Virus record (IMG/VR): IMGVR_UViG_3300034101_003424
Span: 28,767 to 92,766 of that record
DNA from: a virus
DNA: 64,000 bases
Direction: 5' to 3' (one strand)
The notes beneath the pieces are model-generated. The model was not told the origin of the DNA, did no database searches, and saw nothing but the letters and a program-made list of their open reading frames with translations. Of the stretch, positions 6,034 through 62,387 are shown piece by piece (the stretch's first letter is position 1; each line of letters starts with the position of its first letter). The position numbers and the translations under genes are program-made.

Positions 6034-7764
6034 ATGCCAAACTGGAAAAAAGTTTTAGTTAGTGGCTCAAACGCAGAGCTTAATAGATTAAATATATCTA
6101 CATCTTTAACAGCAAGTGGTTTATTATATCCTGCATCAGATGGAATTTCTGGACAAGTTTTAGGAACTGATGGTTTAGGTAATTTATCATTTAGTGATGT
6201 AACAATAGCCCAGGTGAGTACTGTGGCGGCATCTTTTGCATCTACGTCATCAATTACTGTACAGCATAATTTCAATTCTAAAAATGTAATAGTATCTGCT
6301 TATGATAATTCTGATTTTTACTTTGTTCCCGAAACTATAAATTTACTTGATAATAATAGAGTAAAATTAACATTCTCTAACCCATCTACAGGACATGTTG
6401 TAGTGGCTAAGGGAGGTCATATAGTTAGTGCAAGTATGCAGGGAAACCAAGGACTTGTAGGCCCACAAGGATTTCAAGGACTTAGAGGTTTTCAAGGTTT
6501 TCAAGGTATTCAAGGTATTCAAGGTATTCAAGGCCCTATAAGAGAAGTTAGCGAGGTATCCACAGTATCTGCATCTTTTTCCGCTACCTCTTCCATAACA
6601 GTAACACACAATTTTAATTCAAAAAGTGTCGTTGTTTCTGCTTATGATGCTTCTGATTTTTACTTCGTACCTAACCAAATTAAATTACTAGACAATAATA
6701 GAGTAAAACTATCTTTTACTAGCCCATCAACAGGATATGTAGTTGTAGCAAAAGGAGGACATATTGTTAGTGGTAGTTTATATATAGCCGGCCCACAAGG
6801 TCTACAAGGCACTACAGGAGCTCAAGGCTCACAAGGAAACCAAGGTATTCAAGGTATTCAAGGAACCAACGGAACAGTAGGCACACAGGGTTTTCAAGGC
6901 AATCAAGGCCCGCAGGGTAATCAAGGACCGCAAGGTAATCAAGGACCGCAAGGTAATCAGGGAATACAGGGCATACAAGGTACAGTAGGTACTCAAGGTT
7001 TCCAAGGCAATCAAGGACCACAGGGAAACCAAGGCCCAACAGGAATTCAAGGTACAGCAGGAACAAACGGAAACCAGGGTAATCAAGGCCCACAAGGTAA
7101 TCAGGGAATACAGGGCATACAAGGGACAGTAGGTACTCAAGGTTTCCAAGGCAATCAAGGACCACAGGGAAATCAAGGTATTCAAGGGACAGTAGGTACT
7201 CAAGGTTTCCAAGGCAATCAAGGACCACAGGGTAATCAAGGCCCAACAGGAACTCAAGGTAATCAAGGAACATTCGGTATTAATGGATCATCAGGCCCTC
7301 CCGGCCCTTCCGGACCTCCCGGATCTTCCGGACCTCCCGGCCCTCCCGGACCTCCCGGATCAAGTGCAGGAATATCATCATATACAAACCCTGCTGACAA
7401 CAGAGTTATAACATCTGTATCTTCAACAACTATAAATGCAGAATCTAATTTAACATTTGATGGTAGCGTATTAACAGTTACAGGAACTATAACAGAAACG
7501 TCATCAGAAAAAGTAAAAGAAAATATAGAAAAACTGATAAATTCTTTAGATGTTGTAAAAAAGTTGCGGGGTGTTCAATATAATAAGAAAGGAAACAATA
7601 TAAAGGAAATAGGTGTTATAGCAGAAGAGATAAACGAAATACTTCCTCAAGTTGTTTCTATGGATTTAAACGGAAATCCTGCATCAGTATCTTACGGAAG
7701 ATTAACAGCATTATTGATTGAAGCAATTAAGGAATTAGATAACAAAATAAATAAATTAAAATGA
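6034..7764 (+). CDS. Collagen-like tail fibre with C-terminal S74-like chaperone
   Basis: Long G-X-Q and GPP triplet runs, duplicated HNFNSK module, C-terminal KENIE...IGVIAEE...[15 protein letters not shown]. Confidence 0.8.
6800..7360 (+). repeat. Collagen-coding 9-bp tandem repeats (GNQ/GPQ/GIQ/GTQ, then GPP)
   Basis: Recurrent caagg every 9 bp. Confidence 0.9.
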
Positions 7765-8003
7765 AAAAGTACTATCAAGTAGAGAATTATGGAAATGGGT
7801 TTATTACTCACCAAGAAAATGAAACGGCACATGTTGCAGGATATCCGGGCAATATTTGGGTGACCGAAAACACAACATGGGCTCAAAGAGTAAATGCTGT
7901 TGAAAAGACTAAAGCGGAGGCACAAGCCATTGTAGATGCTGCTGTTGCTGCTTCGTATGTCCCACCTAATAGCACAACACCTCCACCAATTGTATTACCT
8001 TAA
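7761..8003 (+). CDS. Hypothetical tail-fibre-associated protein
   Basis: 80-aa ORF overlapping the fibre gene stop. Confidence 0.65.
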
Positions 8004-8012
8004 AAATTAAAT

Positions 8013-8696
8013 ATGAGTAAAGAGTTGCAGATTACGGAAGATTTACGAGAGATTGTAAATGTTTTAAATGAAGAAGATGCTAATACTATTTTATCATTAA
8101 AAGATGAGTTAGTAGATAATTGGCACAAGAAACAGATTTTTAGAACAGAGACAGAAATGAGAGTATCTGTTTTAAATGACGCTAAACACCCTACAAATGC
8201 TTCTAAATATTGGCAATCAGTAAGAGAGATGTCAGCACATTTTGATGCATTGATGAATTTATCTTTTGATTTGAGAAAGAATACGGTAGAGAATTTAAGA
8301 TATAATAGACAGATGGAAGAATTATTATCAGACCCTAATGCTAATAGATTTGACATCATGGAACTTGAAATTGATATTGACAGAAATTTATATGATAGGT
8401 CATGTATGTTACAGGTAGCTAAGGACAGGGTTAGAGAATTAAGTTTATGGAGTACTATTAAGAAAGAATTAGATGATAATTCTTTTGATGCAGAAAATGT
8501 AAACACTCACCAAGCAGAGTCTTTACATAGGTATTTTGAGAATAGGGTTAAGTCTTTAAATGATTCTTCAGCTCCGGGAGAAATTATAAATGCCATGGGA
8601 CCTTACTTATCTTTTAATCGTTTAAAGACAGATGACGGTAAATTAAGAAACTTTTTGGGAGAGGTACCCGAAGATAAACAAAACAGATTACAATAG
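8013..8696 (+). CDS. Conserved phage hypothetical coiled-coil protein
   Basis: KKQIFRTETEMRVSVLND...ASKYWQ motif recalled from fibre loci of aquatic phages. Confidence 0.65.
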   Translation: MSKELQITEDLREIVNVLNEEDANTILSLKDELVDNWHKKQIFRTETEMRVSVLNDAKHPTNASKYWQSVREMSAHFDALMNLSFDLRKNTVENLRYNRQMEELLSDPNANRFDIMELEIDIDRNLYDRSCMLQVAKDRVRELSLWSTIKKELDDNSFDAENVNTHQAESLHRYFENRVKSLNDSSAPGEIINAMGPYLSFNRLKTDDGKLRNFLGEVPEDKQNRLQ

Positions 8697-8700
8697 TTTT

Positions 8701-9285
8701 ATGACTAATTTTATCTACACTAAAAAAAATGCGTTATCAGCCAATACTTGTTATAATCTAATAAAAACTTTTGAAGGCTCTGATTTAAAACAAGCAGGTG
8801 TTCTTTATGGTCCTAACGGTATAAGCTCAGATAGCGATAAAAAATCAACAGATATAACCTTTGACCCATCCTTCCTAAAAAAAGAGGGATGGGCAATGTT
8901 GTTAGACGAGGTAATCATATCAATTCAGAATGGTGTTTCAGATTATCTAAATAGGCATTCTACCGCAATGTGTAAAATGGATCCTATTGATTTATACACT
9001 TACTTCAATATACAGAAATATGAACCTAATGAAGGATTCTATGGATGGCATTGTGAAAGAGCAGGTGTTAAACACTCGGATAGATTATTGGTTTGGATGA
9101 TATATTTAAATACTGTAACGGACAGAGGAGAAACAGAGTTCTTCTACCAGCAGCACTTTGAAGAACCAGAGAGAGGCAAGTTGGTTATTTGGCCTTCTGA
9201 TTGGACTCATCTTCATCGAGGCGTTCCTTCACCAACACAAACAAAGTATATTTTAACGGGATGGTTCACTCATAAAAATGTATAA
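8701..9285 (+). CDS. 2OG-Fe(II) oxygenase (prolyl-4-hydroxylase-like)
   Basis: WHCE, YLN...GETEF, WTHLHRG, KYILTGW motifs. Confidence 0.85.
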   Translation: MTNFIYTKKNALSANTCYNLIKTFEGSDLKQAGVLYGPNGISSDSDKKSTDITFDPSFLKKEGWAMLLDEVIISIQNGVSDYLNRHSTAMCKMDPIDLYTYFNIQKYEPNEGFYGWHCERAGVKHSDRLLVWMIYLNTVTDRGETEFFYQQHFEEPERGKLVIWPSDWTHLHRGVPSPTQTKYILTGWFTHKNV

Positions 9286-9889: not shown

Positions 9890-10528
9890 ATGAATGCACA
9901 AGTTTATCCCATATTTCCAACACCTCTATATGTTGCAAATTATGATAAAGATTTAAAAGATGTAATAGATTATTTTGACAGTTCAGAAATGCAAGATACT
10001 AAAGCAGGGTATGGAATGATATCTACTAATAGTTACATTTTAGATAATCCTATATGCAATGAATTAAATACATTTCTTATGTCATGTTTTGAAGATTTTG
10101 CAACAAACATTATGAGATATAGATTTAAAGAATTAGGATTTGCACAATCATGGTTAACGTATAAGAATCCCAACCAAATTCATAAAGCACATACTCATCC
10201 AAATACAATATTGGCGGGAGTATTCTACTATGACGCACATGAGGATGATGCTGCTATATGTTTTTCAAAAGATGTTAAATCATTTAATAGGTCATACTTT
10301 GAACCATCTTTACATGACGATTATCAAAATCATGTATTTTCACAAGAAGAGATTTACTACATGCCAAAGAAAAATGATTTCCTCATATTTCCATCATGGT
10401 TGACACATGGAGTACCTCCGAATAGAACAAACCGAGTGAGAAAAGCATTAGGAGTAAACGCATTAACGAAAGGAACATTAGGAGATAAAGAAACCATATC
10501 TGAAATAATTTTTGGAAGATACTCATGA
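9890..10528 (+). CDS. Putative 2OG-Fe(II) oxygenase (TIGR02466-like)
   Basis: HTH, AGVFY, FPSWLTHGV. Confidence 0.8.
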   Translation: MNAQVYPIFPTPLYVANYDKDLKDVIDYFDSSEMQDTKAGYGMISTNSYILDNPICNELNTFLMSCFEDFATNIMRYRFKELGFAQSWLTYKNPNQIHKAHTHPNTILAGVFYYDAHEDDAAICFSKDVKSFNRSYFEPSLHDDYQNHVFSQEEIYYMPKKNDFLIFPSWLTHGVPPNRTNRVRKALGVNALTKGTLGDKETISEIIFGRYS

Positions 10529-11343
10529 AACAAAAGATATTTTTTAATTCCACATTACCTAGAAGTGGAAGTACATTATTACAAAATATAATGGGACAAA
10601 ATCCTGAATTCTTTGTAACACCGACATCAGGTCTAATTGATTTGATGCTAGGAGCAAGAATAGGATACAATCAAAACTATGAATCTAAGGCAGGTGATAC
10701 AGAAATGTGGAGAGAAGGATTCTATAAATTTTGCGGGGAAGGAATAAAAGCATATATAGCATCACAGACATCAAAACAATATTACTTAGATAAGAATAGA
10801 GTCTGGGCATTCTACTATAACCTATTATCAAACATGGTAGAAAAACCAAAAGTATTATACATGGTTAGAGATTTACCATCCATATTTGCATCCATGGAAA
10901 AGAAGTTTAGAATGAATCCTGACAAAGATGATGGTACTATGGATAATGTAAAGATGAAAGGAACTACAACACATAAGAGAGTTGAATTATGGGCTCAATC
11001 ACATCCTGTAGGTTATTCATTAGAAAAATTGTATCAGACTTTGTTGGATGGTACAGCTTCCAACTTTTTATTTATTAGATATGAAGATTTGTGTAGTAAT
11101 CCTGATAATGTAATGAAAAGCATCTATCAATATTTAGAGTTAGATGAATTTAAACATGATTTCCAACATATAAGTCAAGTCACCACCGAAAATGATGCAA
11201 TACATGGAATATATGGAGACCATGTGATAAGACCATATTTACAAATGTTGCCAAATGATTCAAAAGAGATATTAGGATTACATACCGTAGATTTGATTAA
11301 AGAGAATTATAAATGGTATTATGATTTCTTTGGGTATAAATAA
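10525..11343 (+). CDS. Sulfotransferase
   Basis: PAPS-binding LPRSGSTLL; VRD and RYEDL motifs. Confidence 0.85.
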   Translation: MKQKIFFNSTLPRSGSTLLQNIMGQNPEFFVTPTSGLIDLMLGARIGYNQNYESKAGDTEMWREGFYKFCGEGIKAYIASQTSKQYYLDKNRVWAFYYNLLSNMVEKPKVLYMVRDLPSIFASMEKKFRMNPDKDDGTMDNVKMKGTTTHKRVELWAQSHPVGYSLEKLYQTLLDGTASNFLFIRYEDLCSNPDNVMKSIYQYLELDEFKHDFQHISQVTTENDAIHGIYGDHVIRPYLQMLPNDSKEILGLHTVDLIKENYKWYYDFFGYK

Positions 11344-15154: not shown

Positions 15155-16072
15155 ATGAAATTTTGCATAGCTACATTGACTCATAGATATGAAGATAGAG
15201 ATGTTTATTTAAGAAAGACTATAGAAAGTTTTATAGATAATACAGAATTTGACGGCATGTTTGATTGGTACATTCATTGTAATGGTCAATATGATTTAAT
15301 GGATGTTGTCATTAAAGAGATGGCTAGTAAATATTGGGATAAGATTAACTTTTACTATTCCTCATCTCCTGATAACATGGGAGTAGGTGTTGGTATTAAT
15401 TATTTGAATTCATTGGTTAGAGATTATGAGTATGTTTTATTTTTAGAAGGAGATTGGATTTGTTTGCCCGGCGAAATTTCTGGTCATAATGATTGGTTAA
15501 GAGATTGCCTTAATTACTTAGACGAAAACAAAAACATCAGTCAAGTGTTACTAAGGAGATACATTAGTGATTTGGATGATAGGCAGTATGGATATGGGTA
15601 TTGGATACGAGAAGATAATATAAAAAGTGTGGGGAAGTTAAAAAATACATATCTCCATTTACATAAGAAAGAATATACCAACAATCCATACATAAGAAGA
15701 AACAATGACTTTTATGATAAGAACATATTACCATTAAATGAATTCTATGATGAAAATGGATTACCTAATGAAATTAAAGGTTTATCCATGTGGGGACAAG
15801 CTGAGATACAAGCAGAGTCAAAAGGATATGAAATAGAATCATGTTATCTAGCATTTGGGAACATGGTACATTGTGAAGCATGGCATTATTATAAAGAGTA
15901 TGATAAATTAATTGAGGAAGATATGACATGTAAAAAGTATTTAGATGTTGGTAAAGCAGGATGTAAATATGGATACTTCTTCCCCGCAAAAAAGTTCTGT
16001 GAAGTATGTGACCATTCTAAAAACTTCACGGATTTAGAAAGACACGAACAGGAATACGAAAGTAAATTATAA
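15155..16072 (+). CDS. Glycosyltransferase family 2-like protein
   Basis: GT-A pattern: N.G...GIN, YVLFLEGDW. Confidence 0.6.
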   Translation: MKFCIATLTHRYEDRDVYLRKTIESFIDNTEFDGMFDWYIHCNGQYDLMDVVIKEMASKYWDKINFYYSSSPDNMGVGVGINYLNSLVRDYEYVLFLEGDWICLPGEISGHNDWLRDCLNYLDENKNISQVLLRRYISDLDDRQYGYGYWIREDNIKSVGKLKNTYLHLHKKEYTNNPYIRRNNDFYDKNILPLNEFYDENGLPNEIKGLSMWGQAEIQAESKGYEIESCYLAFGNMVHCEAWHYYKEYDKLIEEDMTCKKYLDVGKAGCKYGYFFPAKKFCEVCDHSKNFTDLERHEQEYESKL

Positions 16073-18856: not shown

Positions 18857-19511
18857 TGTAATCATTCCTACATTATGGAGATGTAACTTAGAGGAATTTT
18901 ATAATACCCTGCGAATTTTCTGCGGGGAACCTCAAATAAAAGAAATCATATTAATAGACAATGACATAACATTTAAACAAACAATAAAACAAAACATATT
19001 AAACATAAGCTATAAAATAAAATACTATCCACAACAAGAAAATATATATGTAAACCCATCATGGAACTTAGGCGTATCAAAATCCAGCGGGGAACACTTA
19101 ATGATAGTAAATGATGACTTCCACATAACATCTAAAAAAACATTAAAAAACATATTAAAAACACATCAAGATAATAAAGACATATTAAATAGCATATATG
19201 GAATATCAACATCATGCTACATAGAAGAACCAACATCAAATAAAATATACTTAACAGACAATGAAGGAAGAGGAACCGGGTGGGGATGCTTCTTCATATT
19301 ACATAAAGATACATGGACAGACATCCCAAATGAATTAAAAATATGGTTCGGAGATGACTACATAACAAAACATGTATTAAGAAATGGAGGAAAAGTCTAT
19401 ACATTCAAAAATATACATGCATATCCATTCTCACAAACAATATCTCTACAAATATTTAATAGCATCCTAGATAATGACACTAAAATATACATGGAGAAAT
19501 ATGACATTTAA
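18846..19511 (+). CDS. Glycosyltransferase family 2
   Basis: SVIIPT, IDND, WNLG, VNDD, WFGDD. Confidence 0.75.
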   Translation: MTYSVIIPTLWRCNLEEFYNTLRIFCGEPQIKEIILIDNDITFKQTIKQNILNISYKIKYYPQQENIYVNPSWNLGVSKSSGEHLMIVNDDFHITSKKTLKNILKTHQDNKDILNSIYGISTSCYIEEPTSNKIYLTDNEGRGTGWGCFFILHKDTWTDIPNELKIWFGDDYITKHVLRNGGKVYTFKNIHAYPFSQTISLQIFNSILDNDTKIYMEKYDI

Positions 19512-19550: not shown

Positions 19551-21971
19551 ATGAGAATAGACCAAATAGAATTATCAGGTTCGTTATTTGTCACAGCAAG
19601 TGCATCAATCATATTAGGACAGACTAAGATATCCTCTGACAACAACGGGTCAATATCTTTTACAAATGTCAGTAACCCAACGCAAAAAGTAATAGGTTCA
19701 TATTCGGGTTCATTCACAGGTAGTATAAAATTACCTACTATTCCACTTGGTACTTCCGAAACAAATATAGTATTGGTTAATGGTAGTGGAGGTCTAGTAT
19801 ATAGAAGCAACCTATCTTTAACGGGTGCTCAAGGTAGTCAAGGTGCAACAGGAGTACAAGGAACTAACGGCACTGTAGGTACACAAGGTTTTCAAGGCAA
19901 TCAAGGTTCTCAAGGTAACCAAGGTATTCAAGGAACAGTAGGAACACAAGGAACTAACGGCACTGTAGGTACACAAGGTTTCCAAGGCAATCAAGGAACA
20001 ACGGGTTTACAAGGCACTACAGGAGCTCAAGGCACTCAAGGATTTCAAGGTATTCAAGGAACAGTAGGTACACAAGGAAGTCAAGGAGCAAATATAGCAT
20101 CCACTGAATCAAGACCATCTCCCATAAACGCAGACCAAATGTGTTTATGGTTTGACACCACAAGTAAGATGCCAATGGTTTCTTATTGCATTAACACATC
20201 ATTAGTGGGTTCTTGGTCAGCGGGAGGGGCATTGATAACGGCAAGATTCGGTTTAGCAGGAGCAGGAACACAAAATGCGGGACTTGTAGCAGGAGGTTAT
20301 ATAAATGCAAACGTAGCCTGCACCGAAGAATATAATGGCACATCTTGGTCAGCAGGTGGTGTATTGATAACAGCAAGACGTTATTTAGCAGGTTTAGGGA
20401 CACAAAATGCAGGACTTGTAACAGGAGGCTATACAAATGAAGTAGTAGCCTGCACCGAAGAATATAATGGCACATCTTGGTCAGTAGGTGGTGCATTAAT
20501 AACACCAAGATATGGTTCAGCAGGAGCAGGAACACAGAATGCAGGTCTTGCAACAGGAGGTTATTTTTCAGGAGGAGGTGTGTCTTGTACAGAAGAATAC
20601 AATGGTTCATTATGGTCAGCAGGTGGTGCATTGATAACAGCAAGACAAATATTAGCAGGTGCAGGTTCACAAAATGCAGGTCTTGTTGCAGGAGGTTATT
20701 TTTCAGGAGGAGGTGTGTCTTGTACAGAAGAATATGATGGTACATCATGGTCAGCAGGAGGTACACTAATAACAGCAAGGTATGCTTTAGCAGGAGCGGG
20801 AACACAAAATGCTGGACTCGCATCAGGAGGATACCCAACTGTATCCTGCACCGAAGAATACAATGGCACATCTTGGTCAGCAGGAGGTGCATTGATAACA
20901 GCAAGAGGTTATTTTGCGGGAGCAGGTACGCAAAATGCAGGACTTGTAGCAGGAGGGATTGGAGGCACAGCATGTACAGAAGAATACAACGCACCAACCG
21001 AAATCGTTGACCGTAGTTTAGACTCATCTTACAATACAGCACAATATCCAAATAGACCTGAGATACTTGAAACAGGAATGTGTATGTGGTTTGATTCTGT
21101 GAATAGAAAACCTATGGTATCTTACTATGGGTTTGGAGGTATTGGTTCTTGGTCAGCAGGTGGTGCATTGATAACTGCAAGAGGTTATTTAGCAGGAGCA
21201 GGGACACAAAATGAAGTATTTATAGCAGGAGGTTATGCTGGAGCTAATGTATCATGCACAGAAGAATACAATGGCACATCTTGGTCAGCAGGAGGTGCAT
21301 TGTCTACTGCAAGACATGTTTTAATAGGAGCAGGAACACAAAATGTAGGACTTGTAGCAGGAGGAAATAATGGTGCAAATGTTTCATGCACAGAAGAATA
21401 CAATGGCACATCTTGGTCAGCAGGTGGTTCATTGATAACAGCAAGAGGATATTTAGCAGGTACAGGAACACAAAATGAAGCATTTGCAGCAGGGGGTTCT
21501 TCAAATACAATTGTCTCATGCACAGAAGAATATAATGGCACATCTTGGTCAGCAGGTGGTGCATTAATAACAGCAAGATATCGTTTCGCAGGAGCGGGAA
21601 CACAGAATGCAGGTCTTGCTATGGGAGGTGACACAGGTGCGGGGACTGCCCTTACTTGCACAGAAGAATACAATGGCATTGCATGGTCAGCAGAGAGTGC
21701 AATGACAGTTTCAAAATTTTATTTAGCAGCAGCAGGAACACAAAACGAAGGTATTGCTTTTGCATCATATACAAAGGAAACTTGTACTGAAGAGTACAAC
21801 GGTATATCTTGGTCAGCAGGTGGAGCAATGTCAAATTCAAGATACGGCCCACTTGCAGGAGCAGGTACACAAAATGCAGGACTTGCAGCAGGAGGTACAG
21901 GCGGTGGAGTTGCTCGTTCTTTCACAGAAGAATATAATAAACTACTTCAAATAGTTGATTGCTGCTTATAA
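19551..21971 (+). CDS. Collagen-like fibre with two C-terminal Kelch-like propellers
   Basis: SGS-rich N-terminus, G-X-Q stalk, 12 TEEY repeats in two sets of six. Confidence 0.8.
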   Translation: MRIDQIELSGSLFVTASASIILGQTKISSDNNGSISFTNVSNPTQKVIGSYSGSFTGSIKLPTIPLGTSETNIVLVNGSGGLVYRSNLSLTGAQGSQGATGVQGTNGTVGTQGFQGNQGSQGNQGIQGTVGTQGTNGTVGTQGFQGNQGTTGLQGTTGAQGTQGFQGIQGTVGTQGSQGANIASTESRPSPINADQMCLWFDTTSKMPMVSYCINTSLVGSWSAGGALITARFGLAGAGTQNAGLVAGGYINANVACTEEYNGTSWSAGGVLITARRYLAGLGTQNAGLVTGGYTNEVVACTEEYNGTSWSVGGALITPRYGSAGAGTQNAGLATGGYFSGGGVSCTEEYNGSLWSAGGALITARQILAGAGSQNAGLVAGGYFSGGGVSCTEEYDGTSWSAGGTLITARYALAGAGTQNAGLASGGYPTVSCTEEYNGTSWSAGGALITARGYFAGAGTQNAGLVAGGIGGTACTEEYNAPTEIVDRSLDSSYNTAQYPNRPEILETGMCMWFDSVNRKPMVSYYGFGGIGSWSAGGALITARGYLAGAGTQNEVFIAGGYAGANVSCTEEYNGTSWSAGGALSTARHVLIGAGTQNVGLVAGGNNGANVSCTEEYNGTSWSAGGSLITARGYLAGTGTQNEAFAAGGSSNTIVSCTEEYNGTSWSAGGALITARYRFAGAGTQNAGLAMGGDTGAGTALTCTEEYNGIAWSAESAMTVSKFYLAAAGTQNEGIAFASYTKETCTEEYNGISWSAGGAMSNSRYGPLAGAGTQNAGLAAGGTGGGVARSFTEEYNKLLQIVDCCL

Positions 21972-25973: not shown

Positions 25974-26548
25974 TTAACTGGGTCATACGTTTCTGATTTT
26001 TTTGGATTTCTTATTTTTTTACTTGGTGGTAGGTAGAAATTATCTTCTTTACCATCTACTTCTTTTGATAGGTCATAAATATTTCCCATGACTTCAAAAG
26101 GGCATATCAAGTGAGTTAAATCTTCATTCGAGAAATTATGTCCTATGATTTTTTGTATCTCCTTAAGTTTATCTTTTGTTATGTTACTAATAATGTTTAA
26201 TCTTTTGAGTTCTTGATATCTGTATAATGGATAGTCCCCGCAGAAAAATTGCAGAGTAACCGGATTCCATCTTACCCTCTCGAGCTTCATATATAGCTTG
26301 TAATCAACTCCAAGGTATCTACTAAGTATGTTATCATTTTCATAGATTCGATTCCCCAGGGAGTCTCTAAACCCCGTCCACGCATCACAGGACTCAAGAG
26401 AAAATCCTCGAGGAGTTCCAGCATAGACATATCCTAAATCCTTATTATCGGTATCAAATATGTTTTCAAATACTTCAATGATTTCACCTTTCTTTAATTC
26501 CGCAAAACTTTTTTCCGCTCTAAATCTCAGTCTAAAAATAGTCTCCAT
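25970..26548 (-). CDS. YopX-like protein
   Basis: TGFRDSLGNRIYENDNI and EVMGNIYD; start moved to METIF. Confidence 0.65.
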   Translation of the reverse strand: METIFRLRFRAEKSFAELKKGEIIEVFENIFDTDNKDLGYVYAGTPRGFSLESCDAWTGFRDSLGNRIYENDNILSRYLGVDYKLYMKLERVRWNPVTLQFFCGDYPLYRYQELKRLNIISNITKDKLKEIQKIIGHNFSNEDLTHLICPFEVMGNIYDLSKEVDGKEDNFYLPPSKKIRNPKKSETYDPVN

Positions 26549-27719: not shown

Positions 27720-28244
27720 ATGAGTGGTATTATCATTACCGATTATTTGAGAAGATATTTACGAAAAGATTTAGATAACTTTCATAAATACTTGCAGATT
27801 ATAGCAGAGGAAGGAGCGAATTATAGTGACCGGTTAATTCGCCGCAGGGATAAATTACATCTAAATGCTATTAAAGGATTGTTTGCATTTGTCGTAGATT
27901 CTAAAACATTTAATGACATCTCTTCCGCAGATAGAATATATTTTCTAATTGATGCCATGTATTATTATTTCCCATTCGGAAGACATGAGAAGATGAAAAA
28001 AGATGAAGCATTCATTTATGATGTTTTTATCAAGGAATGTAGGAAAGAAGATGTATTGAGGAGACCGGAGTATGAAAAATGGTTAGTTAAAAAAAAGGGC
28101 GGGGATTATTGGAAATGGATGCATCAGATACTAGGAGCAGAGTGGGAAGAATCTAAAAATGAATCAATGAAAATGAAAAAAGCATATAAAGAAAGAGTAA
28201 AGAATAAAGATTTAAGAAACCAATCCATAAACCCAGAAACATGA
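27720..28244 (+). CDS. Hypothetical protein
   Basis: 174-aa ORF in operon. Confidence 0.6.
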   Translation: MSGIIITDYLRRYLRKDLDNFHKYLQIIAEEGANYSDRLIRRRDKLHLNAIKGLFAFVVDSKTFNDISSADRIYFLIDAMYYYFPFGRHEKMKKDEAFIYDVFIKECRKEDVLRRPEYEKWLVKKKGGDYWKWMHQILGAEWEESKNESMKMKKAYKERVKNKDLRNQSINPET

Positions 28245-34969: not shown

Positions 34970-35527
34970 TTAATAAGCCTCTAAGTGAGGATCAATTAAG
35001 TTTTCTAATTTTGTTAATTCGTCAGCAACTTCTTTATTAAAGGAGCCATAAACTCTTATTGTACCGTATTTTACTTTTATGTCTCTTATAAACAATCCAC
35101 CTGTGATATGCGTAAAAGCAGATGCTAAGTGTAAATCTCTACATCTAACTATTGAGTTATCGTTAGCAAATAAATGTAGAAGATTCAGTACAAATGTAGG
35201 GCACCACCAAGGTTTAGCTTTCTTCGCAACAAATACAATAAAATCTTCTAGGTAATCATATAAATCAGTATCCTCATTAAAGATATTCCAGGAAATACCG
35301 AGGTAGTGATATTTATCTTCTCGCTTATTTGAAAAACATCTTAGAACATCTTTGAAAGAGACGGGAGGAAATTTATACCGTTGGCCCTTGCTTGACATTG
35401 GACCATACTTCTTTTCTAAACTGTACAATCCTATTCTATAAGATATGTATGATTTGATATAGTAATACAGTATTATCGCGGGGATATAACCAATTACAAC
35501 AATGAATAAAATAATTAAAATGTACAT
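34970..35527 (-). CDS. Hypothetical protein with N-terminal TM helix
   Basis: 185-aa ORF; IKVKYGTIRVY motif. Confidence 0.6.
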   Translation of the reverse strand: MYILIILFIVVIGYIPAIILYYYIKSYISYRIGLYSLEKKYGPMSSKGQRYKFPPVSFKDVLRCFSNKREDKYHYLGISWNIFNEDTDLYDYLEDFIVFVAKKAKPWWCPTFVLNLLHLFANDNSIVRCRDLHLASAFTHITGGLFIRDIKVKYGTIRVYGSFNKEVADELTKLENLIDPHLEAY

Positions 35528-35786: not shown

Positions 35787-36104
35787 TTATTTATTTTGCG
35801 GGGTTAATTTATCTAACAATTCTAATAAAACATCTCCATGACATGCCTGTGGCTTACACCAACATCCTAAAATCTTACCACCTTTTAATTCATGTAAATC
35901 ATTCAGTAAATGTTTTCCATCTCCATTTGTAATCCATTCTCTGTAAGCATTAACAGCAGCTTCTCTATCTTCCACTACGTGTTTAGCAAGTGTTGTACCA
36001 TCTGGCCAATGAGTAAAAGGATTTCCCCATTTACTAGGCCTTCCAATATATACATTATACTTCTCCTTCTTACAATGGACTACTCTTGATTTCACTATCA
36101 TCAT
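35787..36104 (-). CDS. DUF4326-like protein
   Basis: YIGRPSKWGNPF...LGCWCKPQACHGDVL. Confidence 0.8.
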   Translation of the reverse strand: MMIVKSRVVHCKKEKYNVYIGRPSKWGNPFTHWPDGTTLAKHVVEDREAAVNAYREWITNGDGKHLLNDLHELKGGKILGCWCKPQACHGDVLLELLDKLTPQNK

Positions 36105-36517: not shown

Positions 36518-37249
36518 TTAATCATCTGTTAATTGTCCTACGCTGACTTCACCATCTTCAATAATTAGATATTCCCGGCTCATTCCTAGGGTATCAATAT
36601 AGTAGTACCGGCCTCCTGTAGTTTGTCCCTTAATATCAATTTTCTTTTGCTGCGTGTGTCCTACAACCTGGATGTACTCTTTCCGAAAGGTATCATAGTT
36701 GGATTCCTGCAATGACTTAGGCCGGATCCATATAGGGGAGGATTCAACGCTATCTCCATAAGGATCCCACCCGGCAAATTTAAAAGCGCGGGGAGAACCA
36801 ATAAATAAATCATTAACAATAACATCAATATCATCCTTCATATTTACCTTCATCTTATTACCCCAGTACTCTAACCATTTAGAACTAACTCCCGCATGAC
36901 TAAATAAATAATTATCCATCTTATAACACATAGATAACTCATTTATATGTTCCATCAATAACGACTGAATAGTATGATGATGTCCTCTCTGATGTCCTGA
37001 ATACGTCTCATTAGCAAAAGGCATGTAATGAAAGTCATGATTACCAATTAACATAATAACATCTGCTTTTGAATTGTTCTTAAAATCAATCAAACGTTTA
37101 AAATTATGTAATTGAACTATAATTCTTATACTTTCATGTGTATCAAAGTAATCTCCTACAAATATGAATCTATCTGCATCATTTTCTTTTTCAACAATTT
37201 GTTCCCATGATATCCTACCATGAATGTCTCCAATAATTACACTTTTCAT
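36518..37249 (-). CDS. Calcineurin-like metallophosphoesterase
   Basis: GDIHG, GDYFD, GNHD, SHAG, GHT. Confidence 0.9.
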   Translation of the reverse strand: MKSVIIGDIHGRISWEQIVEKENDADRFIFVGDYFDTHESIRIIVQLHNFKRLIDFKNNSKADVIMLIGNHDFHYMPFANETYSGHQRGHHHTIQSLLMEHINELSMCYKMDNYLFSHAGVSSKWLEYWGNKMKVNMKDDIDVIVNDLFIGSPRAFKFAGWDPYGDSVESSPIWIRPKSLQESNYDTFRKEYIQVVGHTQQKKIDIKGQTTGGRYYYIDTLGMSREYLIIEDGEVSVGQLTDD

Positions 37250-39713: not shown

Positions 39714-40328
39714 CTATGTTAATTTATTTCTTAGCACTTGAATAACATCCCACGCATCCAATAAAGCATTATGAGAAACATTTCCATCAATATTAGCTCT
39801 CTTCTTACATACATCCAAAGAAGGCAGAGTATCATCATTATTCACATCAAAATATAAAATTGCGGGGTCTAATATCCTTTTACGAATATCAATAAATCCT
39901 AACCATCCAGGAACATTATTTAAGAATAACATGTCAAATGCAGCAAAATTCTTTCCAGCTACATTTATCTTATATCTCTGAAATCTAGAATCAGCTTTAA
40001 TTCCATTAGAATCTAGAAAAGATATAAAAGATGAAGTTAATGTAAAAGTTTCAACAAAGATAGGATTATAATTACCTACTTCATTATTTAACGCATCATT
40101 TCTGTCATTTTCTATATAATCTGAAATATCCTTAATAACATCCATATTCATCAATAATGCTTTAGGAGATCCTTTAATGTTTCTATGAATAACAGTAGCA
40201 TAGAACTTAGGACAATCTTCAAATGATAAAGATTTACTTGTATCTTCAATGATTGCTCCAAATGATAGGATTTGATTTTTCTTAGGATTCAAACCACTTG
40301 TTTCAATATCAATACTAACATACAACAT
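39714..40328 (-). CDS. DEDDh 3'-5' exonuclease
   Basis: IDIETSGL, N...FD, HNALLDA. Confidence 0.85.
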   Translation of the reverse strand: MLYVSIDIETSGLNPKKNQILSFGAIIEDTSKSLSFEDCPKFYATVIHRNIKGSPKALLMNMDVIKDISDYIENDRNDALNNEVGNYNPIFVETFTLTSSFISFLDSNGIKADSRFQRYKINVAGKNFAAFDMLFLNNVPGWLGFIDIRKRILDPAILYFDVNNDDTLPSLDVCKKRANIDGNVSHNALLDAWDVIQVLRNKLT

Positions 40329-42944: not shown

Positions 42945-43202
42945 TTAATGTTTAGTATTTTGCGGGGAATACATATTTAATAATCTAAAATTGATTTTTT
43001 TTACTTGACCCATTACTGGACGCCATACTTTAAATCTTATTTGATCCGTTATTTGTCTACTCACTAGATTTTCAACTTTTTTTATTACTTGACTTGATAT
43101 TTCATCTTTTTCATGATTCTCTTTTTCATAATCCCACAGTCCATATACAGTATGATTCCATATCTTGTCCTGTACTAAATTACTTATATTCTCCATAATC
43201 AC
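42945..43202 (-). CDS. Array mini-gene 21
   Basis: ORF track; QV/W-rich helix. Confidence 0.65.
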   Translation of the reverse strand: MIMENISNLVQDKIWNHTVYGLWDYEKENHEKDEISSQVIKKVENLVSRQITDQIRFKVWRPVMGQVKKINFRLLNMYSPQNTKH

Positions 43203-44389: not shown

Positions 44390-44393
44390 AACT

Positions 44394-47010: not shown

Positions 47011-47275
47011 AACTTTACATTTTGTTTTACCTGGTTTTCTGAATATTTCGCGGGGACACTACATAATACATAATCCCAGTAATACATCATTTAATCATAA
47101 TACAAACATACAACATTAAAATAACATATCCAAACATAATAACAATAACAATAAAAATAAAAACATTTACTCCATCATTTATACCATCATAAAATAAAAC
47201 ATCATTCATCATACATCTAACATCAATATACATTCCATCCTACTTTATTCCCTAATGTATTCCCTCATTTACTCC

Positions 47276-47323
47276 ATCATGTACGGTATCATGTATGGCA
47301 TCATGTCCGGTATCATGTACGGT
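47276..47323. repeat. Four tandem 12-bp repeats (ATCATGTACGGT consensus)
   Basis: atcatgtacggt atcatgtatggc atcatgtccggt atcatgtacggt. Confidence 0.85.
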
Positions 47324-49479: not shown

Positions 49480-49620
49480 TTTAATATGCTGCAAAGATAA
49501 TACATTCTTTTGATATATGCAAGCCCCGGCGAATATTTTTTTGCATATTTTTTTTGGGCTCTAATCCAAATGCGTTCCTTAATTTTCCGCGGGGCCATTT
49601 TTTCAGGCCCGGCGAACAAT

Positions 49621-50568: not shown

Positions 50569-51585
50569 TTACACACCGGTCTGTTCCATTATCTTCCGGT
50601 GCGTTATATTGTCTATAGAATCATACCATTGTAAAAACCGTTTGATCCCTTCTCTATATTTCACTTTAGGTTCGTAGCCTAGACTTTTCAGCGGGGCTAC
50701 ATCAGATGCAGTAAAGTATACATCTCCATCCTGCATCCGTTCTAAATTCCGCAGGGCTCCAATACCAATCTCCTCCTCCAGGACATCAATGAAATCTAAT
50801 ATCTTAATGCTCTCATTGCTACCAACATTATATAACATGTACTTGACATCCGTTTCATTTTTAATCACAATATTAATCCCATCAATAATATCATCAATGT
50901 AAGTAAATTCTCTAAACATCTCTCCATGATTATAAATGTTAATGGGAATGTTATTATGAATGTTATATGTAAATTTATAAACCATCATATCCGGTCTACC
51001 CCATGGACCATACACTGTAAAGAATCTAAGCCCTGTAGTACGCATGTTGAACAAATGACTATATACATGTGCCGTCAATTCATTCATCTTCTTAGTCGCT
51101 GCATAAAAGGATACCGGCCCATCCGTTCTATCATCTGTACTAAATGCCATATCCATGTTATCCCCCATTCCATATACACTTGAACTAGATGCATACACTA
51201 AATGCTTTACATCATATTTCTTACATGCTTCTATAATGTTTAAGAATCCCTGAACGTTTGATCGGGCAAATAGATCCGGATCTTTGACGCTGGCTCTAAC
51301 TCCTGCCTGGCCCGCGAGATTTACAACTAGGTCAAACTTATGCAGAGAGAAAATGATATCTACCTTCTTCTTATCTGCTATGTCTAAGTTGTAGTAGCCA
51401 ATGTCTAAGTTGTAGTAGCCAATGCCTTTAGATATCGGCAGGGTATTAAATCTCATGCTATTTAATAACTGGGTGTCGCTTCCATCAAAGAAGTCCACAC
51501 CTATCACTTTGTGGCATTGGGTTAACATAGAGTGTGCTAGATGACTGCCAATGAATCCTGCGACCCCTGTTATTAGTACTTTCAT
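50569..51585 (-). CDS. NAD-dependent epimerase (UDP-glucuronate 4-epimerase-like)
   Basis: GVAGFIG, LAGQAGVR, ASSSSVYG, YAATKK, RFFTVYGPWGRPDM. Confidence 0.9.
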   Translation of the reverse strand: MKVLITGVAGFIGSHLAHSMLTQCHKVIGVDFFDGSDTQLLNSMRFNTLPISKGIGYYNLDIGYYNLDIADKKKVDIIFSLHKFDLVVNLAGQAGVRASVKDPDLFARSNVQGFLNIIEACKKYDVKHLVYASSSSVYGMGDNMDMAFSTDDRTDGPVSFYAATKKMNELTAHVYSHLFNMRTTGLRFFTVYGPWGRPDMMVYKFTYNIHNNIPINIYNHGEMFREFTYIDDIIDGINIVIKNETDVKYMLYNVGSNESIKILDFIDVLEEEIGIGALRNLERMQDGDVYFTASDVAPLKSLGYEPKVKYREGIKRFLQWYDSIDNITHRKIMEQTGV

Positions 51586-51586
51586 G

Positions 51587-52091: not shown

Positions 52092-52715
52092 TTATTTTTT
52101 ACAAGAAGTTAGAATTTCATGGCACAACTCTTCTGGAATTCTACTTCTTTCATAAGAACCTTTCCTTCCTTGAGTTCCCGTCTTTGAACCTCTAGGAGCA
52201 GGAGTATGGTGACAGTTCTTATTACCATTTTTACATATTGGTCTAGGAACCCAATCTTCGGAGTTAGTCCATATATCTGTAGGCTTCGCTCTGTCGTCTC
52301 CGTACTGGCAATACCATACTGTATGTCTTTTAAATCCTTGCATCCATGGCATCTTTCTTAACATGCCTCTTGGATTCTCTATGAAGAAAACCATGTTAGG
52401 ATTAATCTCTAACCATTCTTTTATCAATGATATGAAATGTTGGTTAGTGATGTCACACTCACCTGCATACTTACTCTTCGGATCTACGCCATTTCTGTGA
52501 GTAGATATAGCAGCGATAGTATAGGTTGTACAATCCGGGGATGCCCAAATAATATCCGGAACAAACGGAACATCTTCTTTCTTTAGTTTTGAAATGTCTA
52601 TCTGCAAATCAATGCCATCAAAGTTTTCCCAATCAACAGAGAATACGTTCATGTCTAACTGAGCAGCAGCTTTGCCAATAGACTTACTGCCTGCGAATAA
52701 TTCTAATACGTTCAT
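52092..52715 (-). CDS. DNA cytosine-C5 methyltransferase-like protein
   Basis: LELFAG, WASPDC, IENP, YCQYG...KPTDIW, R..IP..L. Confidence 0.75.
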   Translation of the reverse strand: MNVLELFAGSKSIGKAAAQLDMNVFSVDWENFDGIDLQIDISKLKKEDVPFVPDIIWASPDCTTYTIAAISTHRNGVDPKSKYAGECDITNQHFISLIKEWLEINPNMVFFIENPRGMLRKMPWMQGFKRHTVWYCQYGDDRAKPTDIWTNSEDWVPRPICKNGNKNCHHTPAPRGSKTGTQGRKGSYERSRIPEELCHEILTSCKK

Positions 52716-52793
52716 TTTTTTTAGTTTAGTGGTAAAGAATATAGTGCAAAGATAAGGGGAATATTTAACATACCCAAACATTCCCCTAATTAT

Positions 52794-55587: not shown

Positions 55588-56298
55588 TTACAAAGACCAT
55601 TGACTTGCCATAGCTTTAGCCATGCCTATGAATGTCTTACTTCTCATAGTTCTTCTTTCTTCCGATGACTTAGCATTTGAAAGAGCATCAGCATACCACT
55701 TAGGATGACTTTTACCGCTTTTGAAATACACTCTCTCACCCTCGCTTACTATATCTGTAGGCTCTAATTTAGGTAGATTTTTTAGCCACAAACAAGTTGT
55801 CTTTCTTGCCTCGTCGCCAAACATAAACGGTTGCACAATTTGGTCAGGTTTTCTGTAAGCAGATGATATGACACCAACAGGGTTTTCAATTGCAATCTTA
55901 TCAATAGGCGCATTAGCTATCCTTATGAAAAACTCAATAGCCTTTTCTCTATCTGCTGCTCTATCCGGATGTTTAGGATGTGGTCTTCTAGATTCAACCG
56001 GTAAGTCCTTATCTTCCGGATGGTAGTACCATTGCGCACCACTCACGGCCAAATAAGTACAAGGCGGATGTGCAATCATCATATCCCAATCTGCATTTAT
56101 ATTAACCGTTTCTCCATTTTGAAGAACACCGCCTTGATTCTTGATAATCTCAAAAACGTCATTGTTAAAATGCCATTCGGGATGTCCCCCACTACAAGGA
56201 AGAAGGTCGCAGCTAAATGCATTGTGTCCTAATAATCTCAATTCTCTAGTTAAAGCTTGGCTCTCTTCACAAGCTACTAACACATTTAATTTTTTCAT
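55588..56298 (-). CDS. DNA cytosine methyltransferase-like protein
   Basis: VLVACEES, SCDL, AHPPCT, IENP, QPFMFG, RSKTF.G.A.AMA.QW. Confidence 0.75.
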   Translation of the reverse strand: MKKLNVLVACEESQALTRELRLLGHNAFSCDLLPCSGGHPEWHFNNDVFEIIKNQGGVLQNGETVNINADWDMMIAHPPCTYLAVSGAQWYYHPEDKDLPVESRRPHPKHPDRAADREKAIEFFIRIANAPIDKIAIENPVGVISSAYRKPDQIVQPFMFGDEARKTTCLWLKNLPKLEPTDIVSEGERVYFKSGKSHPKWYADALSNAKSSEERRTMRSKTFIGMAKAMASQWSL

Positions 56299-56382
56299 TT
56301 TTTAGTTTATGTGGTAAATAATATAGTGCAAAGATAAGGGGGATATTTGAGAAAGTCAATACCCCCCTATGTTAATGATTCC

Positions 56383-56952
56383 TTAATTTTCCGCGGGGTT
56401 ATTCTCTCTATATATCCTAATCATTTCTTCCATATCTTCCTCAGTAACGTAGGGATAATCCTCCTTAATCTGCTCCTCACTTTCAATAAATCCATCTTCA
56501 ACATTCGTAATAAAATCATAGAAGAAATTCTCAGGGACTTCTTTATACTGGTATTCATTATAAGTCATATCCTCCCTACTTACTTCATCACCATTTACAT
56601 CAATCTCCACAATACCTGCAAAGTCACACCCCCCTTCCGAATATTCAATCCGTCCTTCCACTCCGTACTTCTTACATACTTTCTTAACAAATTCCGTACA
56701 TGGACTCCAAGCCGTTTCACAATTAAGGTAATCACATTCTTTCATGCTATGTCTAATGTCATCGTCCATCAGTACACTCCATTTAGTGCCGAACTCATCA
56801 CACCAATCATTGTAATCATATTCTTCTTTATAATCAGTCAATGCAGTAAATATACAATGACCGTCCTCAATACTGGCAACATCTTTTCTCAATGTTTCCA
56901 TAGCTTTTTCCGTACCTTCAAATGAGATACAATTAGAACACCAATTTGGCAT
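56383..56952 (-). CDS. YubB/DUF1281-like ferredoxin-fold protein
   Basis: MPNWC.N, W....GTKW, TAWSP, Y.E.G.DFAG. Confidence 0.7.
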   Translation of the reverse strand: MPNWCSNCISFEGTEKAMETLRKDVASIEDGHCIFTALTDYKEEYDYNDWCDEFGTKWSVLMDDDIRHSMKECDYLNCETAWSPCTEFVKKVCKKYGVEGRIEYSEGGCDFAGIVEIDVNGDEVSREDMTYNEYQYKEVPENFFYDFITNVEDGFIESEEQIKEDYPYVTEEDMEEMIRIYRENNPAEN

Positions 56953-58627: not shown

Positions 58628-58731
58628 GATAAATTAATTTAGTGGTTTAAAATATGTTGCAAAGATAAGGGCATCGGATATAATATGCAACACCCTTATC
58701 GTTAATGTTTTGTTAATTTTCCGCGGGGATC

Positions 58732-59142
58732 TTAAACTTTATATCCTCCCATTCTTGCAGCATCCGGAATCAAATCAATACACAATTTATAATCAACCGA
58801 AACAATGTAAGAAACATCTCTATCATCTATATCTTCTCCCAGGAAAGTCCAATTAGGAGCAACCTTAGGATTATACTTAATTTTAAAATCAGACTCTTTA
58901 ACAAAATCAGAATGTCTAATCTCTAAATCATTACATAAAATCCATGCACATACAACCTTAGTACTTTCTCCATTGAAGATCTTAGTAGCCATTTTCTTAT
59001 TATTCCTTAACGTGCATTCTCTCATGATTAATTGAACATCACATGGATTGTAATATGTGACAACTCCATCACTACCAATGACTCTCCATTTCATATAATT
59101 TTCTCCACGTTGTAAAGAGAATCTAACTTTAATCCTTTTCAT
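58732..59142 (-). CDS. Hypothetical early protein
   Basis: KVRF.L.RGENYMKW...VCAW..C...YNP...P.W. Confidence 0.65.
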   Translation of the reverse strand: MKRIKVRFSLQRGENYMKWRVIGSDGVVTYYNPCDVQLIMRECTLRNNKKMATKIFNGESTKVVCAWILCNDLEIRHSDFVKESDFKIKYNPKVAPNWTFLGEDIDDRDVSYIVSVDYKLCIDLIPDAARMGGYKV

Positions 59143-59228
59143 GTTTTTCAATTTAAGTGGTTATTAATATGATGCAAAGATAGGGGGGATTTTTGAGAAA
59201 GTCAATCCCCCCATGTGTTAATGTTATG

Positions 59229-60918: not shown

Positions 60919-61006
60919 TGTTAAAATATTTAAAGTGGTTAATAATCTTATGCAAAAATAGGGGGAACATTTTACATTTCCAAACATTCCCCCACATTTT
61001 TTTAAA

Positions 61007-61732
61007 TTAATTTGCAAACTCCATAGAAAGATTGGCTAACCTCTCATTGATAATTGCAGTCTTGTTAGGGTCTTTCAAGGCAGAATACTTTCTCCTACCT
61101 GCAAACCCATTAATCAATTTTTCTTGAAGACGATTCTGAATAGCCCAAAGCGTATTATCATCATCTGCGAACCTTTCTGACGCAAGTAATACCTTAGCCT
61201 CATTTTCTGTAAAGGCTCTCTTAAAACGCAAAGCAGCAGCCTTCATGGCAAATTCAATAGCCTTTTCTTCGGTCAAGTTTACAGACATTTGCTGCAATAC
61301 GTATTCCTCAAGTTTAGGTAACAAATCAAAAAAGTTGGCTACGATTTCACCCGATATAACTTTCTCTGAAATATCCATAGCTTTCTTTCCGAAATGCCTT
61401 ACTTTGAAAATCTTAGATTCAAATCTTGAGTCAGAGACCGTTAGTCCGTTTGAGCATACTAATCTGAATATTCCCATTGAACATTCAAACCCAACCGTTC
61501 CGTCAAACGAATTGCGGATAACAACTTCGGGATATAAAGTTTCACCTTTCAAGATTAATTCCTTATTGTACCTCATTCTAATAAGGTGCGCGGAACTTTT
61601 AGCGCCTTTCTTTTTAGTCTGAAAGCCTGAAAGATGAAAGCCATTAGACTGAAGGTCATTAATCAATTTTTGTGAGCTGATAGCTACATACTTCGCGCTT
61701 AGATTTGCGCTTTTTACTTCTGAAAGAATCAT
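61007..61732 (-). CDS. DUF932/DUF945-like protein
   Basis: H..R, NSFDG, FRLVCSNGL, LW...N..QE.LI.G. Confidence 0.75.
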   Translation of the reverse strand: MILSEVKSANLSAKYVAISSQKLINDLQSNGFHLSGFQTKKKGAKSSAHLIRMRYNKELILKGETLYPEVVIRNSFDGTVGFECSMGIFRLVCSNGLTVSDSRFESKIFKVRHFGKKAMDISEKVISGEIVANFFDLLPKLEEYVLQQMSVNLTEEKAIEFAMKAAALRFKRAFTENEAKVLLASERFADDDNTLWAIQNRLQEKLINGFAGRRKYSALKDPNKTAIINERLANLSMEFAN

Positions 61733-62064
61733 AGTTTTTAAAAATTTAAAGTGGTTAAGAATCTGATGCAAAGATAAAGAGTAATTTTCTATTTTCCAAA
61801 TTTAAGGCAAACTTTTTTTAAATTAATTTTCTGCCTTTCTAATTACCCTCTCTCTTTATAACACTGCAAAGATAAGCATAAAAACAATACATAGTAGTTA
61901 AAGGAGTGTTAATGTTTTCCCTATTATAGTTAAGGAAATGTTAAGATTCGGATCCACGAAATTTACTCAGGCAGGGCTTTGCCCTGCCCTGAGCGAAATT
62001 CACTGGCATGACAAATCCCCGACGGACACTAAATCCGACGGGGCAAAAAACAAGTCATGTATTC

Positions 62065-62292
62065 TTATCTGAGCTTTGCTTTGAAGTACTTAAAAACTTC
62101 GGGGATATGTTTCTTATAGTATGGTTGATTATCCTTAAGCCACTCTTTTAGTTCTTTGTCGTCCTTAAAAGGTGCTGTCCAGGAATGACCGTTAAATGAG
62201 ATACAATTAGAAACAATTCTATTAAACGTGGGTTCTAGTTCATTGATAAAATCTTGAACAGTCCAACCTTCCCAAATATGCTTATTATTCAT
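62065..62292 (-). CDS. Hypothetical early protein
   Basis: IWEGWTVQDFI...NQPYYKKHIPEV; start moved to MNNKH. Confidence 0.65.
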   Translation of the reverse strand: MNNKHIWEGWTVQDFINELEPTFNRIVSNCISFNGHSWTAPFKDDKELKEWLKDNQPYYKKHIPEVFKYFKAKLR

Positions 62293-62387
62293 TTTACTTT
62301 TTTTAAGTTTTTCGCGGGGATTAATATGTTTCAAAGATAGGGAGAACATTTTACATTTCCAAACATTCTCCCATCTTTTTTTAAATT

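Follow-up and report, generated by a model that had tools for sequence, protein, structure and literature searches.

A strand-specific GCGGGG signal with a one-sided G-poor flank, private to a narrow clade of uncultured T4-like Flavobacterium-type phages

The DNA analysed in this work (the window, 64,000 nt) comprises bases 28767-92766 of a 92.8-kb viral contig (IMG/VR record IMGVR_UViG_3300034101_003424, here G000), and its subject is the hexamer GCGGGG, a genuine, selected, clade-private and strand-specific signal with a novel directional flank. The contig is about 51% complete according to CheckV. Since CheckV rates a colinear 142.6-kb relative (G001) 82% complete, the full genome is expected to be about 170 kb. 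Structural genes occupy the minus strand before about position 1400 of the window, fibre and modification-enzyme genes occupy the plus strand at 1800-30130 (the fibre block), and small early genes occupy the minus strand from 30120 to the window end (the early block). The early genes have Bacteroidota-type promoters (TTG ... TAnnTTTG), with about 22 such host-type promoters on the minus strand of the early block and 2 on its plus strand, and the late genes are preceded by MTATTTATW. The phage is an uncultured T4-like Flavobacterium-type myophage within a narrow clade; its closest cultured phage is Flavobacterium phage vB_FspM_immuto, with a DNA polymerase A 46% identical. The gene set of the clade includes a DnaG-type primase, a DnaB-like helicase (in G001), a 5'-3' exonuclease, a RecA/UvsX-like protein, a gp32-like single-stranded DNA-binding protein (SSB) and an SbcC-like nuclease. 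The primase is a zinc-ribbon protein encoded by a 302-amino-acid open reading frame (ORF) at G000:5761-6669, with a PF01807 match at G000:6484-6606 (25.9 bits). A host search via the epimerase gene gave distant matches only.

GCGGGG was found 18 times on the plus strand of the window and 3 times on the minus strand. One copy of each orientation, at 3169(-) and 3187(+), forms the hairpin (fold z about -4) of an intrinsic terminator at 3169..3192 with GCCCCGC and GCGGGGC arms and a T run, which lies outside the single-copy class. An earlier reading of the letters alone (the sequence-only reading) had rightly set this terminator apart, and its 17 plus-strand coordinates and both reverse copies were all exact. 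Dinucleotide shuffles of the window gave 3.3 copies on both strands, with a maximum of 8, against the 21 observed. Synonymous codons were also shuffled per gene, so that protein and codon usage were preserved; the 21 in-gene copies of the 92.8-kb contig compare with 5.0 expected and a maximum of 14 in 300 shuffles, which bears out the enrichment that had been proposed. The excess over the codon shuffle was 4-7-fold in each block and in the 69 kb of G001 that are absent from the contig. The copies are spaced at about one per 3-4 kb (mean 3.4 kb, coefficient of variation 0.71). The 28 copies of the contig share the extended consensus A-N-W-W-T-T-Y-N-GCGGGG-A, with A at -8 in 21, T at -4 in 21, T at -3 in 18 and A at +6 in 17 of them, and 75-100% of copies have A or T at each motif-strand position from -8 to -3; the T-rich 5' context noticed at first sight is thus real. 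The exact 16-mer TTAATTTTCCGCGGGG accounts for three early-block copies (49579, 56383, 58713), and it also occurs in related IMG/VR contigs beside different genes and in different reading frames. One-mismatch variants of GCGGGG have neither a comparable enrichment nor the flank step described below, and therefore all six letters matter. Coding copies tend to be framed so that GGG or CCC forms a complete codon. A translation-level 'frame-locked word' was nevertheless rejected, because the word uses three frames and either orientation and is also found outside coding DNA. A literature search on the GCGGGG word found no earlier account of it.

Plus-strand copies of the fibre block were located at 7566..7571 (in sense within gene 6034-7764, plus strand), 10733..10738 (gene 10525-11343, plus strand; preceded by TTTT and read F-C-G-E), 18922..18927 and 19087..19092 (both in gene 18846-19511, plus strand), 21639..21644 and 28099..28104 (gene 27720-28244, plus strand; conserved in three relatives). 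The two minus-strand copies lie at 15982..15987 in gene 15155-16072 (plus strand), where the copy is identical in G003, and at 26236..26241, in sense within gene 25970-26599, the lone minus-strand gene of this block, where it is conserved in three relatives. The copy at 21639 falls in a Gly-rich collagen-like stretch, has neither a T-rich flank nor conservation and is probably a chance or coding by-product. All early-block copies are on the plus strand and the genes beside them on the minus strand. Those at 35478..35483 (early gene 34970-35527, close to its 5' end; kept by three relatives), 36788..36793 (phosphoesterase gene 36518-37249; downstream G 0.07), 39862..39867 (exonuclease-like gene 39714-40364; present in three relatives at 80% local identity) and 50691..50696 (epimerase gene 50569-51621, close to its 3' end; G001 and G003 have lost it) are antisense. 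The copy at 35798..35803 is intergenic, 13 nt upstream of the ATG of gene 35543-35785, and that at 42962..42967 stands at the end of a mini-gene array, upstream of gene 41886-42842. The copy at 47050..47055 opens the longest G-free tract of the contig. Among the 16-mer copies, 49579..49594 is intergenic, 27 nt after the stop of gene 49621-50031, and exact in five relatives; 56383..56398 overlaps the last codons and the stop of gene 56383-56952, upstream of the hairpin-promoter of a methyltransferase gene; and 58713..58728 lies 4 nt after the stop of gene 58732-59151, in a frame that differs from that of the 56383 copy. The last copy, at 62314..62319, belongs to the leader of an early gene and follows a host-type -7 box by about 12 nt.

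Without the terminator pair, the ratio of plus- to minus-strand copies in the window was 17:2 (p = 7e-4). It was 11:0 in the early block (p = 1e-3), where the mRNA sense reads CCCCGC, and 6:2 in the fibre block (p = 0.29). The remaining 28.8 kb of the contig gave 3:4, and the whole contig 21:7. For G001 the ratio was 17:12 overall, with 8:10 in the first 100 kb and 8:1 in the last 42 kb. In the codon shuffles, only the plus orientation was enriched in the early and fibre blocks (7 against 0.96 expected and 7 against 1.9), whereas the late minus-strand block and G001 0-69 kb had a like excess of either orientation. Polarity is therefore a genuine but regional property, not a genome-wide one, with a domain of about 57 kb within the window. 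No flip, such as had been considered, is seen at about 30 kb, where the GC skew switches merely because the genes change direction, and the rest of the genome is mixed. Polarity had been proposed to be independent of gene direction; in the early block the two are inseparable.

The flank was profiled on 37 independent single copies from the contig and G001 0-69 kb. On the motif strand, G is flat at about 0.165 upstream, drops to 0.09-0.12 right after the motif and recovers over 300-500 nt, with a G-poor zone of 100-400 nt. Downstream A rises by the amount of G lost, and C and T are nearly unchanged. The downstream DNA, described in the sequence-only reading as A/C-rich, is therefore G-poor and A-rich (G from about 0.165 to 0.10-0.12), but C barely changes. 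The anticipated motif-anchored step is present: the change in G, 150 nt downstream minus 150 nt upstream, was -0.042 ± 0.007 (t = -5.8), against a mean of -0.003 (sd 0.012, worst t -3.3) for 113 control G-rich hexamers. The fall was from 0.19 to 0.14 where the motif strand is sense, from 0.14 to 0.09 where it is antisense, and from 0.136 to 0.058 at non-coding sites; no G step was seen at the terminator-pair copies or at the one-mismatch variants. At sense-strand sites the loss of G amounted to -22% at first, -41% at second and -21% at third codon positions. Because G is lost as strongly at positions 1 and 2 as at position 3, a neutral mutational footprint, the origin first suggested for the flank, is not the simplest reading, and no such change in composition accompanies the 14 experimentally mapped nick sites of Pseudomonas phage tf either (G changes by -0.006 ± 0.014). 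A better fit than mutation is selection acting on the flank, or the retention of sites solely at places with a G-poor flank. As regards placement versus induced depletion, the flank has 0.131 G against 0.150 in aligned immuto homologues, at 7 alignable sites only. Copies of the phage T5 nick word (11 against 6 for its control) were too few for a footprint comparison. Since the flank is one-sided and confined to one strand, it points to a process that proceeds 5'->3' on the motif strand or, put in terms of the template, to a strand rich in T and poor in C ahead of a C run.

The longest G-free tract of each genome, free of C on the opposite strand, starts just after a GCGGGG and, in the window and in G002, a conserved CCAG. 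These tracts measure 177 nt in the window (47080-47256), 340 nt in G002, 294 nt in G004 and 156 nt in G003. After 47055 the first G residues are at +23 and +201, in agreement with the near-absence of G noticed earlier, and the plus-strand runway at 47056..47256 holds one G in about 200 nt, with its first ~135 nt near-invariant in three relatives. The G002 tract (73635-73974; L031:13635-13974) has 21% GC and many short ACATCTA-type direct repeats and looks origin-like. The G-free tract of the window is adjoined at 47255-47330 by a 12-nt tandem repeat, ATCATGTAYGGT, in 5-7 copies, which may be an iteron set or code for a 4-residue peptide repeat on the minus strand. Phage immuto, for its part, has four tracts free of C between 68.3 and 69.6 kb, none of them accompanied by the word.

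Relatives of about 84% identity served to assess how well the copies are kept. In G001, 12 of 16 aligned places had the hexamer intact, against 15 of 95 (16%) for other all-GC hexamers (Fisher's test, p = 4e-6) and a baseline of 38% for hexamers in general. It was intact at 6/6 places in G002 and at 8/14 in G003. At 18922 the codon before the word is TGC, AGC or GGC (Cys, Ser, Gly) in three genomes, and relatives that alter it leave GCGGGG unchanged. At 19087 the preceding AGC has become CGC in G005, and the word is kept despite the Ser->Arg change; in G003 this copy is lost. GCGGGG has a density of 2.27 per 10 kb in 18 loci with a primase at least 78% identical, but 0.14 per 10 kb, equal to the reversed-word control, in 62 loci of the same GC with a 32-41% identical primase. 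Phage immuto (160 kb) has 3 copies. The extended word TTTNGCGGGGA is present 6 times in the 92.8-kb contig, whereas nearly all of 61 Flavobacteriaceae genomes of 2-5 Mb have 0-10 copies, like the control, or about 1 per Mb. On the complete Formosa sp. A9 chromosome, 172 copies of GCGGGG compare with 372 of its reversed control. The excess over the codon shuffle, the conservation and the motif-specific flank agree with the initial impression of a real, selected and strand-specific element. Taken together, they strongly support GCGGGG and its flanks as a cis-acting, strand-specific DNA signal under selection in one narrow phage clade. As the word is private to the clade, absent from distant relatives and rare in the 61 Flavobacteriaceae, its reader is probably a phage-encoded factor.

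Some simpler explanations of the single copies were tried and rejected. Hairpin halves were sought by folding ±40 nt on both strands, and a significant fold was obtained only at 3169/3187, the single copies having z of -2.8 to +2. The sites do not resemble promoters, with a -7 box score of 3.0 against 2.7 in controls and a -33 TTG in 5% against 17%. As to module or recombination junctions, the sites lie no closer to homology breakpoints with four relatives than randomly chosen positions do (P = 0.18 and 0.62); such breakpoints do coincide with a few copies, at 35798 and 62314, and the 16-mer stands at the end of homology in some IMG/VR contigs. A link with 7-deazaguanine was dismissed, since immuto has the pathway without an enriched word, and QueC and TGT/DpdA were not found in four clade genomes. 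The immuto set for this DNA modification lies at 18.6-37.0 kb and consists of FolE, QueD, QueE, QueC, QueF-like and DpdA genes.

We tentatively favour, as plausible rather than probable, the reading that the single copies are preferred start sites of the phage's DnaG-type primase. A loading, nicking or priming site had been suggested at the outset, and this remains the best class of explanation, although its variants of a host Chi/KOPS word and of a mutational footprint did not hold. In the priming model, the complementary strand 5'-CCCCGC-3' would be the lagging-strand template and GCGGG(G) a G/C-rich primer word. T4 primase (gp61) sites give pentamers started with pppGC or pppAC. The T-rich stretch 5' of the motif would correspond to an uncopied A/T-rich 3' flank of the template, and the G-poor runway to a T-rich, C-poor and structure-free template on which primase, clamp and polymerase might assemble. 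T4 gp32 binds poly(dT) best and poly(dC) worst; by conjecture, a C run in a T-rich, C-free template could thus appear as a gap in the SSB coat. Sites would be found on one strand where forks are mainly unidirectional and on both strands where forks run both ways. In the early and fibre blocks the plus strand would then be the nascent lagging strand, with forks moving from right to left in window coordinates.

The zinc-ribbon primase of the contig, the DnaB-like helicase of G001 and the Okazaki-like mean spacing of about 3.4 kb are consistent with priming. In phage T7, an active priming site consists of a G/T-rich pentamer together with an A/T-rich 3' template flank of 8 nt and a distal element; there are 14-26 such sites, 1-6 kb apart, and the origin determines which strand they occupy (PMC12839067). 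T7 primase binds better and makes longer primers when the template flanks are G/T-rich (bioRxiv 10.1101/266924). The sites described here resemble those of T7 in their short G/C-containing primer word, their uncopied A/T-rich 3' flank, some 8 nt long on the template, a preferred base farther away (8-10 nt) and an importance of flank composition. They are also alike in number and spacing (a few dozen per genome, 1-6 kb apart, sometimes in close pairs), in having a phage-encoded primase and, within the model, in a strand set by fork direction. On the other hand, GCGGGG has six fixed letters, compared with three to five in T7 and T4 sites, and it is strongly over-represented, conserved and followed by a 100-400-nt flank; it is also known from sequence alone. 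The priming model led us to expect an origin at the right-hand end of the polar domain, a prediction made before the G002 tract was seen. In G002 the polar domain ends at a 340-nt C-free, repeat-rich tract, a candidate origin, beyond which sites face as lagging-strand primers would.

Several points weigh against primase start sites. The 11:0 orientation in the early block is fully confounded with gene direction, and the sites on the far side of the candidate origin tract of G002 are unpolarised (4:4). Known DnaG-type primases need a trinucleotide only, so that a six-letter requirement is unusual. The flank effects of T7 extend over about 10-30 nt, compared with a G-poor zone of 100-400 nt here, and the composition of four-fold sites did not independently reveal which way replication runs. 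Moreover, any gene specific to the clade would co-occur with the word just as the primase does. In a broader form, it is conceivable, if somewhat doubtful, that the clade hard-wires the start of a single-strand DNA transaction, either priming or nick-initiated unwinding, by means of a private word and a selected G-free runway. Such a runway would reshape the amino-acid composition of the genes it crosses. To our knowledge, phage replication offers no described case of a start site that is defined by sequence and has a long compositional runway on one strand.

Site-specific single-strand nicks of the type known from T5, phiKMV-like phages and phage tf are, with the polar roadblock considered below, the main rival to priming, though an unlikely one, in which a phage nickase would cut the motif strand at or beside GCGGGG and the G-poor downstream strand would serve as a flap or gap zone. 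The tf nick word is a 9-mer with 14 copies, all on the top strand and spread across two convergent transcription units, many at gene boundaries and at positions common to relatives (PMC3517423). The word itself is TACT/RTGMC in tf, and the major-nick consensus of T5 is R/GCGCRGG (PMC3517423). The 17:2 ratio in the window and the conserved positions are like those of tf, the T5 word is also GCG-led and G-rich, and the clade's genes include those of a 5'-3' exonuclease and an SbcC-like nuclease. GCGGGG shares with the T5, tf and phiKMV words over-representation, asymmetry, one-strand placement across convergent blocks, a frequent position at early-region gene boundaries and locations common to relatives. 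However, the known nick words are confined to one strand genome-wide, whereas GCGGGG stands on both strands outside a 57-75-kb domain, as the totals for the contig and G001 show. No HNH domain was found in four clade genomes, there is no known nickase candidate, and the lack of a step at the tf sites means that the G-poor flank is no known consequence of nicking. We regard it as distinctly unlikely that the word is an asymmetric site for a phage DNA-binding protein acting as a polar roadblock or operator. Bound in this way, the protein would halt early-type RNA polymerase moving leftward, both inside the early block and where it reads on into the convergent fibre block. Cluster A mycobacteriophages have such sites in their stoperators, which are asymmetric, number dozens, are oriented with transcription and lie in genes and gaps. 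GCGGGG is similar to these in that its asymmetric 15-16-bp consensus recurs many times within and between genes, frequently close to a stop or start codon and with one orientation in one block; all 11 early-block copies have the same orientation to transcription, 5 of these 11 are non-coding against 2.1 expected, and the plus-strand copies of the fibre block face a leftward RNA polymerase in the same way. But the two orientations share the enrichment equally in the large late block of the minus strand, as they do in G001 0-69 kb; duplex binding gives no reason for a one-strand, one-sided G-poor flank of 100-400 nt, which has no counterpart among stoperators; and there is no candidate binding protein. 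The phage is, moreover, a lytic T4-like phage without a known repressor.

An RNA-level signal is improbable. It would make CCCCGC(GG)AAAAUU a processing, termination or antitermination box of early mRNAs, or, in a Rho-type variant, let GCGGGG and the C>G, G-poor, rut-like tract terminate motif-strand transcripts. In its favour are the three exact 16-mers, which stand just after stops and precede by 12-15 nt a terminator-like hairpin joined to the following promoter, and the doubling of the downstream C/G ratio to about 2-3.5 at unconstrained sites. However, the extended word is enriched in both gene orientations, and complementary RNAs cannot share one function; motif-strand RNA is not obviously made in the early block, given its promoter counts; and the single copies lie outside stable hairpins. 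G-rich asymmetric words are enriched in Chi-rich phages, and GCGGGG, being G-rich, asymmetric, enriched and regionally polar, with an orientation that matters, recalls the Chi, KOPS and SRS words. It might then have accumulated to tame a host enzyme, as Chi for AddAB/RecBCD or as a KOPS/SRS-like guide. We consider this host-read word very improbable. Words of this kind fill the host chromosome, whereas GCGGGG is rare in the Flavobacteriaceae searched and private to the phage clade; it is enriched neither in the Formosa chromosome nor in the 61 genomes, although the phage's own host is not established. Distant phage relatives of the same GC and probably similar hosts are without the word, and a flank on the 3' side is not predicted by Chi biology. 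It is just as hard to believe that the word has no function of its own and represents leftover GCCCCGC/GCGGGGC terminator halves, codon-pair bias or chance. The same word does form terminator stems, with 2-10 paired copies per genome here and in relatives, and a few copies (21639 and genome position 10697, outside the window) lack both flank and conservation. The codon-shuffle excess, the conservation, the extended consensus, the motif-specific flank and the want of hairpin partners largely refute this for the class, though it may hold for 3-5 individual copies.

If the sites are starts of priming or of nick-initiated unwinding, replication direction and origins of uncultured phages would become readable from their genomes. 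The sequence would then be a map of fork direction and of an origin-like element (the G-free repeat-bearing tracts of 200-430 nt beside some copies), and a replication enzyme's preference for a word would be seen to limit coding sequence across a whole genome. Around other clade-private polar phage words, the G-to-A runway anchored on the motif can serve as a simple, testable signature to search for. If the word is a nick site or a roadblock instead, it offers a defined 16-bp probe for the reader protein.

Some further features were observed near the sites. The late motif MTATTTATW lies 15-30 nt upstream of late gene starts, and the fibre block has 9 copies on the plus strand and 1 on the minus strand, with plus-strand positions at 1733, 3216, 4748, 11356, 19524, 22033, 27380 and 29749. 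The early-gene junctions at 49480-49590, 56300-56395, 58630-58725 and 62320-62370 share a module that is terminator and promoter in one, in which the hairpin loop holds the -33 TTG and the 3' arm abuts the -7 box TAnnTTTG. Its stems vary between relatives via compensatory changes (GGGGGGTAT/ATATCCCCC in place of GGAGGAAT/ATTCCTCC). Paralogous PHROG-757 'DNA methyltransferase' genes are present on the minus strand at 52092-52781 and 55588-56298, with a 16-mer copy just upstream of the second; neither gave a Pfam, NCBIfam or PDB sequence match. The minus strand at 42945-47010 contains about 20 tandem small ORFs (54-85 amino acids) with overlapping stop and start codons, a paralogous mini-protein array whose ORFs have in common a conserved junction …CTTCATAACTTTATGTTTTGTTTTACTTG…. 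In G002, the region at 74.0-79.6 kb (L031:14000-19600) holds nine copies of a 126-240-nt repeat, 540-710 nt apart, each ending in a GCCCCGCGG…CGCGGGGC terminator and a ACCACTTAAA leader, which looks like a tandem family of small early genes. Finally, the minus strand at 38470-38562 matches the Rfam tRNA model (38.5 bits, E 1.5e-4), with no ARAGORN call at this place.

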